A stretch of 64,000 nucleotides of DNA from Polyangiales bacterium (GCA_046351515.1 JAXLYJ010000019.1:80452-144451); one strand, 5' to 3'. Shown: positions 15,524-61,463, counted from the stretch's first letter. Notes: generated by a model from the sequence alone, not told the origin. Numbers and translations: made by a program.

Positions 15524-16783
15524 TCAGCGAGAGAACACCATGTGCTGCACTTGACCAGCGCTGCCCGAGTCGATGAACAGGTCGAAGCCCGTCGGACGCA
15601 CGGAGTATTGACCCGCGCCAGGGCCCGCCATGCCGCCGTCGCTGCACGTGGGCGTGAGGCGAATGAGCGTCCCGCCACTGGTGTAGTTGAAGTTGGCGCG
15701 CACGACCGTCGGGCTGCCCGGGGCCACCACGACGAACTGCATCGATCCGCGGGTCACTTGCACGGCGTAGCGCACGCCTCCCGGGCCGATCGAGCTGCCG
15801 TTGTACGAGATGAGATCGCGAAGGGTGTAGTAGCCGTCGGCGATCGTTCCGCCCGTGGCGGCGGGCGGAACGCCCATCACCGAGCGCGGGATGACGGTGA
15901 ACGCCGAGGGCGCCACGCTGTTGCACACTGGCGGAGGACCACCCGCGTCGATGCAGCCGGGCGCTCCGCTCGGCGTGCACTGCAGGCCCATCGCAGTGCA
16001 GCAGCACGAGAGGCATCCGTTCGCGAAGCACGCGCCCACCGGAACGGGCGCGCCGCCCGGATCCACGCACACGCTCGCGTCCGCAAAGCACCCAGGGTTG
16101 CTCGCGCACGAGGTCGTCCCGTCGGGACGACACACGCAGCTCGTGCAGCGATCGCGAGACGTCCACGTGGTGCCAACAGCGAACGCGGTTCCGTCCGGAG
16201 CGCGGCACACCGTCGGCCCTCCCGCGTCGAAGCATCGCGGATCTCTGCTCGGCGCGCACGCCGCCGGACCTCCCGGCATCGGGCACGTGCACGCGAGGCA
16301 GAAATCGCGGCTCAGAACGCGCGCCCCCAGCGGCACCGGCGTCCCGTCGGGAGCGAAGCACACCGGCGGCGGCGGCCCCGCGTCGAAGCAATCGCTGCGA
16401 CGCGCGCACGAGAGCGAGGCGCTCATGTCACAGAAGCACTCCGTGCATCCATCGGGCGAACGCCAGCTCGCGCCGACTTCGACCGGCGTTCCATCGGGCG
16501 CCGAGCACATCGGCGGCGGCGGAACGACCACGTCTTCGGGACACGCGCGCGCCGTGCACGCGAGCAATCCCCCCGGGCCGCACGAACACGTGTTGCACCC
16601 GTCGAAGAAGCTCTCGCCCACCGCCAGCACTCGTCCGCCGGGCAACACACAGCCGCCGCCGTCCGGCAACGTCGCGTCCGGTCGCGACTCTCCGCCGTCC
16701 CCTGGACGCACGTAGGCGCCGCACGCCGTTAGCAGCCACGCCGCCATCACCACGATCCACGTTGCTCTGCCGCCGTGTCTCAT
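15524..16783 (-). CDS. lipoprotein with five tandem VWC-like (CxxCxC) cysteine-rich repeats
   Basis: MRHGGRATWIVVMAAWLLTAC lipobox. Five ~45-aa repeats of C-x5-7-G-x5-G-x2-[WF]-x3-5-C-x2-C-x-C-x6-8-C-x4-6-C. C-terminal ~130-aa beta-rich domain. Confidence 0.7.
   Translation of the reverse strand: MRHGGRATWIVVMAAWLLTACGAYVRPGDGGESRPDATLPDGGGCVLPGGRVLAVGESFFDGCNTCSCGPGGLLACTARACPEDVVVPPPPMCSAPDGTPVEVGASWRSPDGCTECFCDMSASLSCARRSDCFDAGPPPPVCFAPDGTPVPLGARVLSRDFCLACTCPMPGGPAACAPSRDPRCFDAGGPTVCRAPDGTAFAVGTTWTSRDRCTSCVCRPDGTTSCASNPGCFADASVCVDPGGAPVPVGACFANGCLSCCCTAMGLQCTPSGAPGCIDAGGPPPVCNSVAPSAFTVIPRSVMGVPPAATGGTIADGYYTLRDLISYNGSSIGPGGVRYAVQVTRGSMQFVVVAPGSPTVVRANFNYTSGGTLIRLTPTCSDGGMAGPGAGQYSVRPTGFDLFIDSGSAGQVQHMVFSR
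15946..16657 (-). repeat. five tandem in-frame Cys-rich coding repeats
   Basis: The peptide repeats start at CVLPGGRVLAVGESFFDGCNTCSC, CSAPDGTPVEVGASWRSPDGCTECFC, CFAPDGTPVPLGARVLSRDFCLACTC, CRAPDGTAFAVGTTWTSRDRCTSCVC and CVDPGGAPVPVGACFANGCLSCCC. Confidence 0.7.
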
Positions 16784-16957
16784 CGCTCACTCTCCAATCG
16801 AAGTCGAAAGCATCGCTCAGCACGTTCCGAGCCGGGCTCGTGAAGTGTCGCACATCCAAGATCACCCGGCGAATTCTGCGATGACTCGTGGTCAGTAAAG
16901 ATTCCCCCCTGACGTCCCCTCCCCGACCGAGGCACGTCGTGGCACAACCCCCGCCGA

Positions 16958-33598: not shown

Positions 33599-33618
33599 GC
33601 TGCCCGAACCTCGGCGAC

Positions 33619-33649
33619 GGCTGCGCCCGATCACGTCGCGGGCGCAGCC
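33619..33649 (+). terminator. stem-loop terminator candidate downstream of htrA
   Basis: GGCTGCGCCCG-atcacgtcg-CGGGCGCAGCC is a perfect 11-bp stem. It lies 21 nt after the htrA stop and is followed by GTTTCGCGTT. Confidence 0.55.
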
Positions 33650-33700
33650 GTTTCGCGTTGCGCTCAATAGCGAACGAGTGATTCACTATTGATCACCCTC

Positions 33701-56513: not shown

Positions 56514-57161
56514 TCACTCGGCGTCGTCGGTTCCGACGGCGGCGAGCTGCACGGGAAGCTTGTGCTGCATCCGGTCGCGCTTGGTCTCGAGGTACGCCAG
56601 CGAGTGCGGGTTGGGGCGAATCAGCACTGGGATCCGCCCGCGGACCTCGACGCCGAGCGTGCGAAGCGCCTGCTCTTTCTCGGGGTTGTTGGTCATCAAG
56701 CGCACCGAGCGCACGCCGAGCCAGCGCAGCATCGCCGCGCTCTGGTCGTACGTACGCGAATCGTCGGGCAGCCCGAGCTCGCGATTGGCGTCGACCGTGT
56801 CCACGCCCTGCGCCTGCAACGCGTACGCGCGGATCTTGTTGGTGAGCCCAATGCCGCGCCCCTCTTGGCGGAGATAGAGCACCACGCCGCGGCCGTTGCG
56901 CGCGATGCGGGCGAGCGCAGCTTCGAGCTGCTCGCGGCAATCGCACTTGAGCGAGCCCAACACTTCGCTGGTCAAGCACTCGGAGTGCATTCGAACGGGG
57001 ACGTCCTCGGCGCCGTTCACCGAGCCCGAGACGATCGCGACGTGCTCGAGCCCTTCAGGTTCGTGAGCGGCGCGAAACACAAAGACGTTGAACTGTCCGT
57101 GCCGCGTGGGAAGCGGCGTCTGCGCTGCGACGATGAGCTCGGGGTTGGAGCTGAGTGTCAT
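56514..57161 (-). CDS. ribA: GTP cyclohydrolase II
   Basis: RMHSECLTSEVLGSLKCDCREQL, LYLRQEGRGIGLTNKIRAYALQ, NNPEK. ATG 57161 has GGAGGA 10 nt upstream. The upstream ATG 57188 has no RBS. Confidence 0.9.
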   Translation of the reverse strand: MTLSSNPELIVAAQTPLPTRHGQFNVFVFRAAHEPEGLEHVAIVSGSVNGAEDVPVRMHSECLTSEVLGSLKCDCREQLEAALARIARNGRGVVLYLRQEGRGIGLTNKIRAYALQAQGVDTVDANRELGLPDDSRTYDQSAAMLRWLGVRSVRLMTNNPEKEQALRTLGVEVRGRIPVLIRPNPHSLAYLETKRDRMQHKLPVQLAAVGTDDAE

Positions 57162-57401
57162 CTGAAGTTCGTCCTCCGCGGATCGCATGGGCGATTCGCA
57201 ATCGGGGAGTGAGTGATGGTTGGGTCCGAAGGAGTTCCGTCTTCCGATGGAGCAGCGATGATTCGCGGATCGATCGGTACGGGTCGCAACCCTCTCCGTG
57301 AGGAGATCGCCGCGTCGGAAAGGCCCCGACGCTTGTACTACCGTGCTTCAGTACTTCGGGGACTCTACGGCGGTTACGCTGAAAGGCAACCCTCCCCTCT
57401 T

Positions 57402-58229
57402 TCACCGACCCGAGGGAAGATCTCCGAACGCCGTCGCGAGCTCGGACAGCGTGTGGGTCTTGAGCACGCCCTGCGGCAACGGCTCGAACCTCGCCGCGCC
57501 TTCGCCGCCAACAAACAGCCGAGCGCCGACGCCGCGCGTCGCCAGCGAGATCTGCTGGATCGCCTCGCGCACGCCCTCGAACGGATGAATGACCGAAAAC
57601 GAGAGCACCACCGCGCTCGGCCGCTCGGCGGCGACCATCAGCGCGAGATCGCCGATGGGGCAGCGCGCCCCGAGCATCATCGACGAGTAGCCCATGCCCG
57701 ACGCGATCACCGAGATCATTCGCAGGGCGATGTCGTGCTGCTCCTCGCCCGGCGCGGCAAAGAGGATCCGGCCGCGCGTGGCAGGCACCTCGATGAGCGC
57801 GCGCACGCGAGCGAGCGCGTCGATCACGGTCTGCGCCGCGAGGTGCTCTTGCGCGACGCTCACAGCGCCGCGCGCCCAACGCTCTCCGATGTCGACGAGC
57901 GCCGGCGTCGCGACGGTGTCGAAGACCGCCGCGAGCGTCAGGCCCTTCATGCGCAGCTGCGCGATGAGGGTCACCAGGCGATCGGCGTCGCCCGAGAGCG
58001 CGAGGCTACGAAACTGCCCGACGTAGTCCTCGGCGCCGCCGTCGGTCGAGAGCTTCTCGATCTCGTACTGGTGGCGCTTTCGAAAGTCGGCGATGTCGGC
58101 GTTGCGAAACTTTCGATGACCGCCCGGAGTGCGAAAGCACAGGAGCGTTCCCGCGTCGGCCCAACGCTTGACGGTCGCTTCGCTGACGGCGAGCAACTCG
58201 GCCACCTGACGTGTCGTGAGAATATCCAC
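57402..58229 (-). CDS. CarH/LitR-type B12-binding light-responsive transcriptional regulator (MerR/excisionase-type HTH)
   Basis: GTG 58229 inside ORF 57402..59039. HTH TTRQVAELLAVSEATVKRWADAGTLLCF. Helical-bundle signature W-x9-E-H (WARGAVSVAQEH). Rossmann B12 domain with lower-ligand ExH (GEEQHDIALRM). Confidence 0.75.
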   Translation of the reverse strand: MDILTTRQVAELLAVSEATVKRWADAGTLLCFRTPGGHRKFRNADIADFRKRHQYEIEKLSTDGGAEDYVGQFRSLALSGDADRLVTLIAQLRMKGLTLAAVFDTVATPALVDIGERWARGAVSVAQEHLAAQTVIDALARVRALIEVPATRGRILFAAPGEEQHDIALRMISVIASGMGYSSMMLGARCPIGDLALMVAAERPSAVVLSFSVIHPFEGVREAIQQISLATRGVGARLFVGGEGAARFEPLPQGVLKTHTLSELATAFGDLPSGR

Positions 58230-58350
58230 GGTGTTGAACTCTCTCTTGGCGGTTCCGATGCCGCTTCGCCGCAGTCGTTGCGGGATCGAACTTCGCCCGT
58301 TCGTGCTACCAGCGTCCCGAGCCGCAGGCTCAACGAACGGAGAAGTTGCA

Positions 58351-59475
58351 ATGAGCGGCCAATCGTCGGGCGGATTCGATGTGGTGATTGTCGGCGGGGG
58401 CTTGATGGGCAGCTTGTCGGCGCTGCGTCTGGCCGACGAGGGCAGGCGCGTCTTGGTGCTCGAAAAAGCCGTTCCGGGCGCGGAGGCGTCGAGCGCAGCG
58501 GCGGGCATCCTCGCGGGACAGAGCGAGTCGAAGACCGACGGACCGCTGTTCGACATCTCCGTCGAGTCCCGCGAGCGGTACGTCGCCCTCGCCGCTGAGC
58601 TTCGCGAGCGCGTCGGGATCGACGTCGGCTTTCGTCGCTGCGGCGTCATCGAAGTCGCCGAGACCGAACAAGCCCTCGATGAGCTCGAGCGCACGTTTGC
58701 CTGGCAACGCGCGAAGGGACACCGCGTCGAGCGCGTCGAAGCCGCGGCCCTGCGCTCGATCGAGCCGCAGCTCAACGCTGGTTTCGCCGGCGCCATCGCG
58801 CTGCCGGACGACGGACAAGTCGACCCGCCCACCCTCGTGTCCGCCATCGCGCAGGCCGCCGAGCGCGCCGGAGCCACCTTTCGCGCGGGAACCACCGTTC
58901 GCTCGGTCGTCATCGACAACGGTGTCGCGCGCGGCGTCGAGGTCGAAGACGGCCGCATCGACGCCGGCCACGTCGTGATCGCCGCAGGCGCGTGGAGCTC
59001 GCTCGTCCAAAACGCCACCGTCGCCTCGAGCGCCGTCAAGCCCGCGCGCGGTCAGATCGTCGAGCTCTCGCTGCGCACGCCGCCGTTCAAGAGCATCGTG
59101 TTTGGGCGCGGCGGATACGCGGTTCCGCGGCCCGATGGACGGGTTTTGTGCGGCAGCACGCTCGAGTTCGTGGGCTTTCAACGGGACGTCACCGTCGGCG
59201 GGCTCGCGAAGATCCTCGGGACGATCACAGGGCTGGCTCCGTCGCTCGCCGACGCGAAGGTCAACCGAACGTGGTCCAACTTCAGGCCGTTCTCGTCGGA
59301 CGGCGCAGCGCTCGTGGGTGACGCCGGCATCGCCAACCTCACCCTCGCCACCGGCCATCACCGCAGCGGAATCCTCCTCGCGCCCGCCACCGCCGAGCGC
59401 GTCCGCGCGCACGTGATCGACGGCCGCACCGACGCGAACTCACCGTGGAATCCCTCGCGCCGCGCGAGCGCGTAG
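58351..59475 (+). CDS. thiO: FAD-dependent glycine oxidase (ThiO-like, DAO family)
   Basis: ATG 58351 after GGAGAAG. FDVVIVGGGLMGS dinucleotide fold. C-terminal ATGHHRSGILLAPATAE block typical of ThiO. Confidence 0.7.
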   Translation: MSGQSSGGFDVVIVGGGLMGSLSALRLADEGRRVLVLEKAVPGAEASSAAAGILAGQSESKTDGPLFDISVESRERYVALAAELRERVGIDVGFRRCGVIEVAETEQALDELERTFAWQRAKGHRVERVEAAALRSIEPQLNAGFAGAIALPDDGQVDPPTLVSAIAQAAERAGATFRAGTTVRSVVIDNGVARGVEVEDGRIDAGHVVIAAGAWSSLVQNATVASSAVKPARGQIVELSLRTPPFKSIVFGRGGYAVPRPDGRVLCGSTLEFVGFQRDVTVGGLAKILGTITGLAPSLADAKVNRTWSNFRPFSSDGAALVGDAGIANLTLATGHHRSGILLAPATAERVRAHVIDGRTDANSPWNPSRRASA

Positions 59476-59491
59476 CCCCTCGCCGAGCGCG

Positions 59492-59722
59492 TCAGTCGTT
59501 CTCTGGATCTGGCAGCTGATCGAGGATCTCGCTCTCCTGCGGAAATCTCCCGGCTGTGTGCTTCGAGAACAGCAGCTTGCCGTCGACGATCACGTCGAAC
59601 ACGCCGCCGCCGCCCTTCTCGAGCACGGGTTGCACGCCCACTTGCTTCTCGATCGCGGCCGCGAGACTCGCGGCCCTCGGCCTGTAGTTTCAGGCCACGC
59701 AGTATCGAATCAGGATGTCCAT
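59492..59722 (-). CDS. SelW/Rdx-family selenoprotein (CxxU), in-frame TGA at 59692..59690 read as selenocysteine
   Basis: ATG 59722. Translation MDILIRYCVA-U-NYRPRAASLAAAIEKQVGVQPVLEKGGGGVFDVIVDGKLLFSKHTAGRFPQESEILDQLPDPEND, with stop at 59494..59492. The YC-x-x-U and G-x-F-[DE]-V-x-V-x-G-K-L-[IL]-[FH]-SK blocks match the SelW/Rdx family. G/C third-position bias continues across the TGA. Confidence 0.75.
59657..59675 (-). other. putative bacterial SECIS hairpin
   Basis: GGCCGCGAG-U-CUCGCGGCC is a perfect inverted repeat starting 14 nt 3' of the in-frame UGA. The apical region AGUCU contains GU. Confidence 0.6.
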
Positions 59723-59784
59723 CGAGCGCTGGACTCTAGGCTCGCAGCCTCGATCGTCCAGCGCCGATTCGCGCCCGCTCGCGA

Positions 59785-59801
59785 GTGACACAGTATGTCA
59801 C
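59785..59801. promoter_or_regulatory. 6-5-6 palindrome GTGACA-cagta-TGTCAC (candidate operator)
   Basis: Perfect inverted repeat in the 163-nt divergent region between the selenoprotein gene and the SWIM gene. Confidence 0.35.
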
Positions 59802-59885
59802 TACGCGCTGGTCACTTCCGCGGTGTTCAGCGTTATCCTCCCGGCGACTCTGCGCAATCAACGGCAGAGCAGAAGGACATCGCAC

Positions 59886-61463
59886 ATGGCCATCGAACTG
59901 ACGGGGGCAATGCTCGACGCGCTCGCGCCCAAGCCCGACGTTCTCTCGGACGCGCGCTCGATCGTGCGCGGAGGCAAGGTCAGCAAGCCGCAGAAGACCT
60001 CGGACGGATCGCTCTTGTGGGGCGCGATCAAGGGCTCTGCGAAAGAGCCGTACAGCGCATCGGTCGACCTCGCGGCCAACCCCGAGCGCCCCGTGATGCG
60101 CTGCTCGTGCCCTTCGCGGCTGCACCCGTGCAAACACGTGATGGCGCTCATGGTGGCCTTCGTCGACGGCAAGTCCTTCAGCGAGAAAGAGGCGCCCAAA
60201 GACCTCCTCGAGAAGCGAGAGAAGTACGTCGCGCGCGGCGGGTCGGCCGAGAGCCCCAAGTCCGCGCCGAAGGAAGAATCGCCGGAGAAAAAAGCGGCGC
60301 GCGAGGCCAAAGCCGAAGCGACGAAGAAGGCCGCCGCGGCGAAGAAGACCGAGATGCAGCGCGAGGCGCTCGACGTGCTCGAGAAGTTCGTGCTCGACCT
60401 CGTCTCGAGCGGCCTCGGCGGGCTCAGCGCCAAGAGCGTGAAGGCCATCGACGACCAGGCGCGACGGATGAACGACGCAGACCTTCGCGGCGCGCACGGG
60501 CTGCTCAAGCAGCTCATCGACGCGGCGACGAGCACTGCAGAAGAGAAGCCCAAGAAGAGCGCCGCGCGAAAGAAGGCCAAGAAGGGCGCAGCAGAACCCG
60601 AGGAAGCGGGAGAAGACCGAGGAGCGAGCGACCTGCTCGCGCAGCGGCACGCGCGGCTCGCGCTCACGGTGACGCGGCTGTGGGTCGCCGTCCGCAAGGG
60701 CCGCAAGGTCCTCGAGGGAAAGCTCGAAGAAGGCGACACGCAGTCCGAGTCCGACGCGCAGATGGAGTCGCTGCTCGGCCGCGCGTGGAAGCTCGCTGAG
60801 CTGCAAGAGCGCGGGTACTGGATCAAAGACCGCACGTTCGTCGAGCTCGCCCACGAGAAGAGCGACGACAAGGTGCTCGAGATCCTCGCGCACAAGGGAT
60901 ACCTGCTCGACCTGGCCGACGGCTCGGTGCACATGGAGTGGACGGGGCTTCCGTACGTCGCGCTGAGGCAAGCAGCGGCGAGCCTGCGACAGTCGCGACA
61001 CAACGTGTTGTCGGTGAAAGAGGCCGCGCTCTACCCGGGCGACGTCGTCAATCGCCGCGTGCGATGGGACGAAAAGAGCGGCGCGCTCTCGGAGGCGCCC
61101 CGCACGAGCGAGACCGTCGAGAGGCTGCGCTCGTTGGCCAGGCCCTTCGACGCCGCGGTGAAGCTCTTTCGCGAGCAGCTGAAGCACCCGCTCTCGCCGC
61201 TCGAGGCGGTGCTCTTGCTCGACGTGAAGAAGATCGGCCGCGTGGGAGAGAGCGTGGTGATCGAGGACGGAGCGGGCGCGCGGATCGTGGTGCGCGACGC
61301 GCCGTGGAGCTTCGCGACGCTCGAGAACTTTCTGCACGCAGCGGGAGCGTTCGGCGCGGGGCCGACCGCAGTGCGGCTGTGGTTCGACGCGAAAGAGCGC
61401 TTGATCTACGGCCAGCCGCTCGCGCTGTTCGCGGGCGATCGCCACGTTCGTTTGGGTCTGTGA
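59886..61463 (+). CDS. SWIM zinc-finger protein with Lys/Glu/Ala-rich linkers
   Basis: ATG 59886 after GAAGGA. SWIM CxCx6CxH in RCSCPSRLHPCKHVMAL. Two charged low-complexity linkers. A ~300-aa C-terminal domain of unknown family. Confidence 0.75.
   Translation: MAIELTGAMLDALAPKPDVLSDARSIVRGGKVSKPQKTSDGSLLWGAIKGSAKEPYSASVDLAANPERPVMRCSCPSRLHPCKHVMALMVAFVDGKSFSEKEAPKDLLEKREKYVARGGSAESPKSAPKEESPEKKAAREAKAEATKKAAAAKKTEMQREALDVLEKFVLDLVSSGLGGLSAKSVKAIDDQARRMNDADLRGAHGLLKQLIDAATSTAEEKPKKSAARKKAKKGAAEPEEAGEDRGASDLLAQRHARLALTVTRLWVAVRKGRKVLEGKLEEGDTQSESDAQMESLLGRAWKLAELQERGYWIKDRTFVELAHEKSDDKVLEILAHKGYLLDLADGSVHMEWTGLPYVALRQAAASLRQSRHNVLSVKEAALYPGDVVNRRVRWDEKSGALSEAPRTSETVERLRSLARPFDAAVKLFREQLKHPLSPLEAVLLLDVKKIGRVGESVVIEDGAGARIVVRDAPWSFATLENFLHAAGAFGAGPTAVRLWFDAKERLIYGQPLALFAGDRHVRLGL

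Follow-up and report, generated by a model that had tools for sequence, protein, structure and literature searches.

On the minus strand of the 64-kb stretch of DNA analysed here (the window), a short reading frame at 59492..59722 is interrupted by an in-frame TGA, which raises the question of whether this locus is a damaged gene, a gene whose product stops at that codon, or a selenoprotein gene in which UGA is decoded as selenocysteine (Sec). Translation from the ATG at 59722-59720 gives MDILIRYCVA, the TGA at 59692-59690, NYRPRAASLAAAIEKQVGVQPVLEKGGGGVFDVIVDGKLLFSKHTAGRFPQESEILDQLPDPEND and a terminal TGA at 59494-59492. The frame comprises 76 sense positions plus the stop; the in-frame TGA is codon 11, the putative selenocysteine codon, and 65 codons follow it before the terminal TGA. 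The Cys8 codon (TGC, 59699..59701, minus strand) encodes the first residue of a C-x-x-U redox motif of which codon 11 (59690..59692, minus strand) is the last. A preliminary description of this DNA had given the ATG at 59722, the TGA, the stop and the total of 76 codons, all of which proved exact on retranslation. It had also reported a G/C third-position bias on both sides of the TGA, and we recovered this bias as G or C in the third position of 8 of the 10 codons before the TGA and a GC3 of 0.83 after it, in a window whose overall G+C content is 69%. Moreover, its statement that standard gene callers miss or truncate the gene agrees with what we found, as the mechanical ORF list contains just a 49-aa fragment at this locus (59492-59641), and database copies are either N-terminally truncated or carry Trp at the TGA. 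No obvious Shine-Dalgarno sequence precedes the ATG of the window copy; AGGA[AG] precedes the ATG in three relatives (L007, L016, and L017). On the evidence described below, we consider this locus to be a real selenoprotein gene of the SelW-like group (Rdx family), with its UGA almost certainly read as Sec.

Family membership was assessed with U treated as C. The protein matches Pfam Rdx (PF10262) with 62.8 bits against a gathering threshold of 22.6, over residues 3-70 and profile positions 2-72 of 74, and the NCBIfam model TIGR02174 (CXXU_selWTH) with 51.6 bits against a curated cut-off of 34.2. Both scores exceed the curated cut-offs and uphold the SelW/Rdx assignment made in the preliminary description. 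The top-scoring NCBIfam model was the Campylobacter equivalog NF041051 (SelTWH_Campy), whose score of 80.6 bits lies under its 88-bit cut-off, and the gene is not assigned to that equivalog. The family profile matches the solved Rdx structures 2LJK (MIEN1), 2FA8 (Agrobacterium Atu0228), 2OKA, 3DEX, 2OJL, 2OBK, and 2P0G, and it also matches mouse selenoprotein W (2NPB). In the profile alignment, the CxxC motif of the solved Rdx structures falls exactly on C8..U11 (YCEPCGF in 2LJK and YCTQCNW in 2FA8), which places U11 on the second Cys of that motif, just as had been suggested for the YC-x-x-U of this protein. Homology to these structures predicts that the protein adopts a thioredoxin-like β-α-β-β-β-α fold. 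Its membership tests therefore place the gene in the known family of SelW-like bacterial selenoproteins, and the biological surprise is low.

If the TGA were a nonsense mutation in an ordinary Rdx gene (TGC or TGT to TGA), or a base-call error, the locus would be a pseudogene or an assembly artefact. TGA is indeed a single substitution away from TGC or TGT, relatives with a Cys codon exist, including one (L055) with TGT in a near-identical context, and the locus is treated as broken by gene callers. The distribution of the TGA among relatives argues strongly against this explanation. We aligned the DNA of 41 TGA-bearing relatives from metagenomes and named metagenome-assembled genomes (MAGs) and found that in this TGA-bearing set the triplet stands in the codon-11 column in 41/41 sequences, down to 37% protein identity. 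All 15 of the metagenome contigs with the closest relatives carry an in-frame TGA at the same codon and keep the upstream pattern M-x-[IV]-x-I-x-Y-C-x-x. A scan of named MAGs with one genome per species yielded 34 loci, of which 33 have TGA at this column and one, from Gemmatimonas (L048), has TGC. The nearest of these relatives, at 80-82% identity, are in the MAGs JAEUKI01 and LNEO01, one from Myxococcales and one from 'Deltaproteobacteria', and further ones come from Polyangia, Planctomycetota, Acidobacteriota, Gemmatimonadota, Desulfocapsaceae, Burkholderiales, Actinomycetota, Chloroflexia, and Gudongella (Firmicutes). The TGA-bearing relatives are thus closest in Myxococcales and extend to at least seven other phyla.

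Conservation is not limited to the TGA itself. Full-length orthologues share both the start and the TGA position with the window gene, and codons 1-10 and 12-27 are kept in frame among the relatives. Upstream of the TGA, residues are fixed while their codons vary: Tyr7 is encoded by TAC in 30 sequences and TAT in 10, Cys8 by TGC in 34 and TGT in 6, and Ile5 by ATC in 27 and ATT in 12. Such synonymous variation under fixed residues is a signature of translation of the stretch before the UGA. Cys8 is Cys in 40 of the 41 relatives; in the remaining one (L041), that codon is itself a TGA. Among the other relatives, a minority have Cys instead of the putative Sec, with TGC or TGT at codon 11 in L048, L055, L056, and L057. 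The alignment of the U/C column that the preliminary description had proposed therefore gives TGA in 41/41 Sec-type sequences and TGC or TGT in these four. These comparisons show a reading frame that, judged from its codons, is conserved and under purifying selection on both sides of the UGA; the preliminary description had made its own reading depend on the downstream side. A mutation or sequencing error would have to recur at the same codon in 41 independently assembled relatives from many phyla, amid purifying selection on both flanks and next to a covarying hairpin. We regard this explanation as vanishingly improbable and effectively refuted by conservation.

We then considered how the family is represented in protein databases. 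Searching with a profile, we obtained 6443 members of the family (E<=1e-5). In 125 of these 6443, the position aligned with U11 is W in 75 (TGA read through), C in 35, R in 4, and G in 1; the other 10 are truncated or could not be parsed at the motif, and include one protein with W at both redox positions (P0101). The closest database proteins are N-terminal truncations of 44-63 aa, with one exception that reads CVAW, that is, TGA as Trp. The truncated entries could be taken to mean that UGA terminates translation and that a shorter product is made from a downstream start, such as the GTG at 59641 (49 aa), with the first 10 codons serving as a leader or remaining untranslated. Some stopping at codon 11 is even to be expected in vivo, because RF2 and SelB compete for Sec codons (PMC4513850). 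However, no internal start is conserved, and the truncated database calls begin at differing positions. The Pfam domain, at residues 3-70, crosses the UGA, and a short product would be devoid of strand β1 and of the entire redox motif. The in-frame conservation of codons 1-10 and 12-27 also speaks against it. Termination with a shorter functional product is therefore extremely improbable.

We found a candidate SECIS element directly downstream of the UGA. An inverted repeat, GGCCGCGAG-T-CTCGCGGCC, occupies 59675-59657 and starts 14 nt past the UGA. It forms a bacterial SECIS-type hairpin (59657..59675, minus strand) that lies within the coding sequence over codons 16-22 (R-A-A-S-L-A-A), with stem arms at 59675-59668 and 59664-59657 and an apical loop G-U-C (59665..59667, minus strand) whose G and U are contributed by the Ser19 codon AGU (59668-59666). 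The 19 nt fold with -14.7 kcal/mol, either as 8 bp with the loop GUC or as 7 bp with the loop AGUCU. The preliminary description was right about the coordinates of this hairpin, its 14-nt spacing from the UGA and the GU at its apex, but not about its loop, which it had drawn as a single U: a 1-nt loop is sterically impossible, and the hairpin loop is 3-5 nt long.

We compared this structure with the bSECIS model (PMC13188914). The model calls for a loop of 3-9 nt on an upper stem of 4-16 bp, a G within the first two nucleotides of the loop, typically in the pattern N1(0-1)G[G|U]N N2(0-1), a distance of 16-37 nt between the UGA and the loop, and an MFE no higher than -7.5 kcal/mol. Measured against these terms, the window hairpin has a 3-nt (or 5-nt) loop on an 8-bp (or 7-bp) stem, an apex A-G-U-C-U in which A and U pair, 22 nt between the UGA and the loop (59689-59668), in the same register in 38 of the 41 relatives, and a folding energy well below the limit (-14.7 versus -7.5 kcal/mol). 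As a background estimate, we applied bSECIS-style constraints to all 1283 TGA triplets in the window, and 8 of them (0.6%) precede a perfectly paired stem of 8 bp or more. By itself the hairpin is thus uncommon but not decisive; with the family match and the cross-species conservation it goes far beyond chance. No Rfam family matched the hairpin at gathering or permissive thresholds, as one would expect from the family specificity of bacterial SECIS elements. We also screened the other same-frame adjacent ORF pairs in the window for additional selenoproteins, and in none does a Pfam domain span the intervening stop. A second hairpin that would sequester the UGA (UGGCCUG-AAACUA-CAGGCCG) was considered as a conserved feature and rejected, because codon 14 varies among relatives and the helix is missing from the RNAalifold prediction; this UGA-containing lower helix forms in the window copy and is not conserved in relatives.

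The hairpin could nevertheless be something other than a SECIS element. It might arise simply because Ala-Ala-Ser-Leu-Ala-Ala is specified by GC-rich codons, or it might affect mRNA stability or cause ribosomes to pause. DNA of high G+C content folds easily, the 71-nt region has a z-score of just -1.4, and 4 of the 8 stem pairs are set by positions 1 and 2 of Ala codons and hence carry little information. We therefore looked at pairing in an ungapped alignment of the 41 sequences and found that 88.5% of stem cells are paired, versus 26-52% after a shift of the 3' arm by 1-3 nt. The stem covariation score is 0.439 versus 0.06-0.13 in the slid registers, and 36 cells are changed on both sides versus 11-19, with such two-sided changes in 5 of the 8 pairs. 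None of 500 column shuffles reached the observed covariation, and RNAalifold independently predicts the same helix. The most telling positions are the pairs formed by synonymous third positions, which the protein leaves free and which are paired in 92-95% of sequences with compensatory switches. The pair between columns 21 and 33 is formed in 36 of 39 sequences (C-G 19, G-C 7, U-G 6, U-A 3, A-U 1, unpaired 3), and the pair between columns 24 and 30 in 37 of 39 (C-G 27, G-C 8, G-U 1, U-G 1, unpaired 2). When Ala in the 5' arm is replaced by Ser, Val, or Thr, matching substitutions occur in the 3' arm, for instance in L028-L030, L039, and L047; examples are GCUUCC...GGAAGC in L030 and GCCGUC...GACGG in L047. 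The SECIS reading of the preliminary description is thereby strengthened by the agreement with the bSECIS model, the same helix from RNAalifold and compensatory changes at synonymous sites, and the hairpin that it expected to be conserved in Sec-containing orthologues is so conserved (88.5% pairing, 0/500 shuffles).

The loop provides a further line of evidence. Codon 19, which supplies the apical G and U, is AGU in 21 relatives, GGU in 11, GGG in 3, CGU in 2, and AGG in 1, so that 38 of 41 retain a loop G[U/G]; the remaining three (L044-L046) have a different fold over the hairpin columns. The codons used here are unusual choices within the window: of the 747 Ser codons in its Pfam-supported genes, AGU makes up 1.2%, less than any other, and GGU accounts for 5.4% of Gly codons in window genes. 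As a control, we examined the DNA of the four Cys-containing relatives (L048, L055, L056, and L057); a tblastn search of plasmid sequences for Cys-form DNA yielded nothing. L055 is almost identical to the Sec form L024 but has TGT at the column, with the AGU hairpin intact, which we read as a very recent Sec-to-Cys change. In the other three Cys forms (L056, L057, and L048), the stem is mostly kept and the loop codon is GGC, AGC, or GCC. A loop G[U/G] is thus present in 38/41 Sec forms versus 1/4 Cys forms (Fisher p=0.005, on a small sample). Among database proteins, S, G, or R occupies the loop position in 73/76 Sec-type versus 21/35 Cys-type sequences (p=4e-6, for sequences that are phylogenetically non-independent).

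The persistence of stems in Cys forms, including L055, L056, and L057, means that part of the complementarity stems from the peptide Ala-Ala-x-Leu-Ala-Ala in GC-rich codons, as a purely coding origin would have it. In contrast, the loss of the loop G-U in Cys forms ties the loop constraint to the UGA, and we take the comparison to show that the loop is under nucleotide-level selection. The relatives thus offer a clean natural experiment on SECIS constraint, in which the rare AGU or GGU is kept with Sec and altered in three of four Cys forms. A hairpin without SECIS function would have to account for the use of the rarest Ser and Gly codons in the loop and their decay in three of four Cys forms, for the free third-position pairs, for a 3' arm that tracks amino-acid changes in the 5' arm, and for the agreement with all four bSECIS constraints. 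We find such an origin very improbable.

Given a SECIS-like element, it remains to be asked which amino acid is inserted. UGA could be read through as Trp, Cys, or Gly, by near-cognate suppression or a reassigned code, and several pipelines do give Trp in homologues, while five database homologues have R or G at this position. Searches for the Sec machinery close to the gene were also negative. None of selA, selB, and selD was found among the ~50 annotated ORFs of the window, which contains no tRNA of any kind, tRNA-Sec included, and a tRNA scan did not find tRNA-Sec in the flanks of 40 relative loci. Similarly, tblastn with E. coli SelA, SelB, and SelD probes gave no matches in the window and 626 kb of related loci (~10-kb flanks). 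The phylum does contain known Sec users, among them Anaeromyxobacter dehalogenans with its 11 selenoproteins (PMC1794560). In our view, a lineage without Sec machinery could hardly maintain a conserved UGA together with a covarying SECIS. Read-through by suppression or reassignment fits poorly with the role of TGA as the main stop in this DNA, where it ends 18 of the 22 Pfam-supported genes as well as the SelW-like gene itself. The 69% G+C is also unlike the lineages in which UGA is known to be reassigned, which counts against a reassigned code. Furthermore, a CxxW sequence would abolish the redox motif, the natural substitute in relatives is Cys rather than Trp, and a position-fixed, covarying hairpin with a loop G[U/G] is a signature of SelB-dependent decoding. 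Insertion of a residue other than Sec is thus very improbable.

The gene very probably encodes a 76-residue SelW-like thiol/selenol oxidoreductase with the active-site motif Cys8-Val-Ala-Sec11, in which UGA is decoded as Sec. According to the mechanism that we propose, the hairpin at 59675-59657 would recruit SelB-GTP-Sec-tRNA(Sec) to its loop as the ribosome nears the UGA at 59692-59690; the apical G-U lies 23-24 nt past the UGA. Sec would be delivered to the A-site UGA in competition with RF2, after which the hairpin would be unwound and translated as R-A-A-S-L-A-A. Translation would end at the terminal TGA (59494-59492), which has no such hairpin. By analogy with the family, Cys8 and Sec11 may cycle between a reversible selenenylsulfide and the selenol/thiol form, making this a small redox protein on a thioredoxin-like fold. 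Recognition by SelB and the actual incorporation of selenium are inferred from the established bacterial pathway. Most pipelines miss or truncate the gene, and its annotation should give a selenoprotein of 76 aa, with codon 11 marked as a translation exception. Its presence would imply a Sec-decoding trait and a selenium requirement in a high-GC, Myxococcales-like host.

To place the gene in its genomic context, we inspected its neighbours. The gene content of the window is Myxococcota-like, with a Ser/Thr kinase, PEGA and lamin-tail-domain proteins, a 1565-aa sigma-54 activator, and a dynamin-like GTPase. On the 3' side of the SelW-like gene lie a DAO-family FAD oxidoreductase gene (58351-59475, plus strand), which is convergent with it and ends 16 nt from its stop, a gene for a CarH-like MerR/B12-binding regulator (within 57402-58331, minus strand), and a GTP cyclohydrolase II gene (56514-57347, minus strand). 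Beyond 59722, on the plus strand, a divergent gene for a 531-aa protein is followed by a HEAT-repeat gene and an AAA_5 gene. Targeted tblastn of the neighbours showed that every Myxococcales-clade relative retains this order, even where the DAO protein is only ~70% identical, and found no neighbours conserved across phyla; the synteny is confined to the Myxococcales clade. The divergent intergenic region contains a palindrome, AGTGACA-TACTG-TGTCACT (59784..59802, minus strand), ~62-80 nt before the ATG. Its core, TGACA-N6-GTCAC, is kept in L002, L004, L007, L016, and L017 while the nearby intergenic DNA diverges, and this conservation suggests a candidate operator or promoter element. No match to a sigma-70 promoter or terminator consensus was found in 59300-60000.

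This arrangement raises the idea that in this Myxococcales clade the SelW-like gene belongs to a light- or B12-controlled photo-oxidative stress module and does not encode a free-standing housekeeping redox protein. In such a module, the CarH-like regulator would gate expression of the SelW-like gene, and the DAO-type flavoenzyme would be its redox partner. The fixed synteny with the DAO oxidoreductase, the CarH-like regulator and GTP cyclohydrolase II is compatible with this idea, as is the palindrome in the promoter region. We nevertheless think it unlikely. If it were true, the physiology of a bacterial SelW-like protein would for the first time have a point of entry.

Bacterial SelW-like CxxU selenoproteins have been known since 2005, and reviews file them under PF10262 (PMC1088965, PMC2398784, PMC9312934, PMC13188914). 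In marine metagenomes they outnumber every other bacterial selenoprotein family (PMC1088965, PMC2398784), and in the GOS data set Sec forms outnumber Cys forms by 427 to 56 (PMC1088965, PMC1794560, PMC2398784). The same preponderance is seen here, with 75 W-read versus 35 Cys forms among the top database matches. The known bacterial proteins share with the window gene the domain, a length of ~70-80 aa, an N-terminal CxxU and a single UGA-encoded Sec, together with a SECIS within the ORF, directly downstream of the UGA, that has a G in a small apical loop. Nothing categorical sets the window gene apart from them. It differs in coming from a high-GC, Myxococcales-like soil or sediment lineage, whereas these papers list marine and anaerobe genomes, and in the conserved neighbourhood of the Myxococcales-clade copy with a DAO-type flavoprotein and a CarH-like regulator.

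Comparison with more distant systems helps to delimit the group. Mammalian SELENOW (2NPB, CxxU) and MIEN1 (2LJK, CxxC) are Rdx-family proteins with the motif at the same position and, by homology, the same thioredoxin-like fold, but they are distant from the window protein (E=1.4e-4 for 2NPB and E=1.7e-11 for 2LJK). Eukaryotic SelW uses a SECIS in the 3'-UTR with a kink-turn, together with SBP2 and eEFSec. Unlike that element, the putative SECIS in the window is a simple in-ORF hairpin of the bacterial SelB type. The Cys-containing Rdx proteins (2FA8 and the Pseudomonas proteins 2OBK and 2OKA) have the same domain, a YC-x-x-C-N-[WY] motif that resembles YC-V-A-U-N-Y in the window protein, and a common G-x-F-E-[IV]-x-V-D-G block. 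However, they carry Cys in place of Sec and involve no recoding, and at the loop-codon position they typically have W, A, or Q instead of S or G. The experimentally defined SECIS of E. coli fdhF is a stem-loop just 3' of the UGA within the ORF, with an apical A-GGUC-U. The window hairpin is similar in that its apical G-U is closed by an A-U pair (A-GUC-U versus A-GGUC-U). It differs from fdhF in having no bulged U in the upper stem, no sequence homology, and a lower UGA helix that is not conserved in relatives. As a separate observation on SelW-like proteins, we came across a recurrent marine bacterial clade with a U-x-x-U (double-Sec) motif.

In some SelW-like genes, both redox positions of the C-x-x-U motif are encoded by TGA, giving a double-Sec U-x-x-U motif, as in Y-U-G-M-U-N-Y. 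Such genes were found in a Desulfocapsaceae MAG (CAZUUJ010000025.1; L041:4272-4283), at a second locus (L058:264-275), and on 35 metagenome contigs, mostly marine (L059-L093). A degenerate DNA pattern for U-x-x-U returned 35 matches, against approximately 0.1 expected by chance on a rough estimate, and all 35 proved to be bona fide SelW-like genes. These matches are spread over several clades, and the G+C content of their contigs ranges from 36 to 60%. The same hairpin is present 3' of the motif in each U-x-x-U gene. The distance between the first UGA and the loop is 31 nt, still within the 16-37 nt range of the bacterial SECIS model, and therefore a single SECIS could serve both UGA codons. 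In reviews of prokaryotic selenoproteins, SELENOW-like proteins are described as CxxU with one Sec, and UxxU forms of SELENOW are on record only from amphioxus and Ostreococcus (PMC7539508).

Other residues also occupy the Sec column (codon 11) among relatives of the SelW gene. One locus (L055, ENA ERZ1794893 FX_farmland_Scaff1673312, positions 157-378) encodes a Cys form, with TGT at this column; it differs little from the Sec form L024, and its AGU-loop hairpin is still intact. This locus appears to have switched from Sec to Cys very recently and to carry a fossil SECIS, or else to represent a polymorphism or an error. Five database homologues carry Arg (P0043, P0076, P0103, and P0122) or Gly (P0107) at the same column, substitutions that would destroy the redox motif; the codon in these homologues is presumably CGA or GGA, one substitution away from TGA, and the five may be errors, pseudogenes, or genuine variants.

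At the Sec-UGA itself, the window copy alone forms a second 7-bp helix, UGGCCUG/CAGGCCG (59678-59697, minus strand), that sequesters the codon's U and G. This helix relies on codon 14, a variable codon, and showed no conservation in relatives.

The SelW gene is neighbored by genes for a GTP cyclohydrolase II (56514-57347, minus strand), a CarH-like regulator with a MerR HTH and two B12-binding domains (within 57402-58331, minus strand), and a DAO-family FAD oxidoreductase (58351-59475, plus strand), a three-gene arrangement kept beside the selenoprotein gene in the Myxococcales clade only. Upstream, the divergent intergenic region contains a perfect palindrome, AGTGACA-TACTG-TGTCACT (59784-59802), and an invariant GAGGATA motif (59833-59840). 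Both are kept in five relatives (L002, L004, L007, L016, and L017) in which the flanking DNA has diverged, and we consider them candidate operator or promoter elements. The gene for the CarH-like regulator lies 1.4 kb from them.

Elsewhere in the window, an ORF at 15527-16786 (minus strand) matches Pfam Pacifastin_I (E=1.1e-9; 38.3 bits versus a cut-off of 27.9), which is odd for a bacterial genome because this is an arthropod protease-inhibitor domain. The codon-position G+C profile of this ORF is unusual, and its frame call is therefore uncertain. The strongest hairpin 3' of any TGA triplet in the window is a 13-bp perfect stem, GGCTGCGCCCG...CGGGCGCAGCC (33610-33666), located in the intergenic region between 33598 and 33671, flanked by genes for an HtrA-like protease and an amidase, and is probably a terminator.
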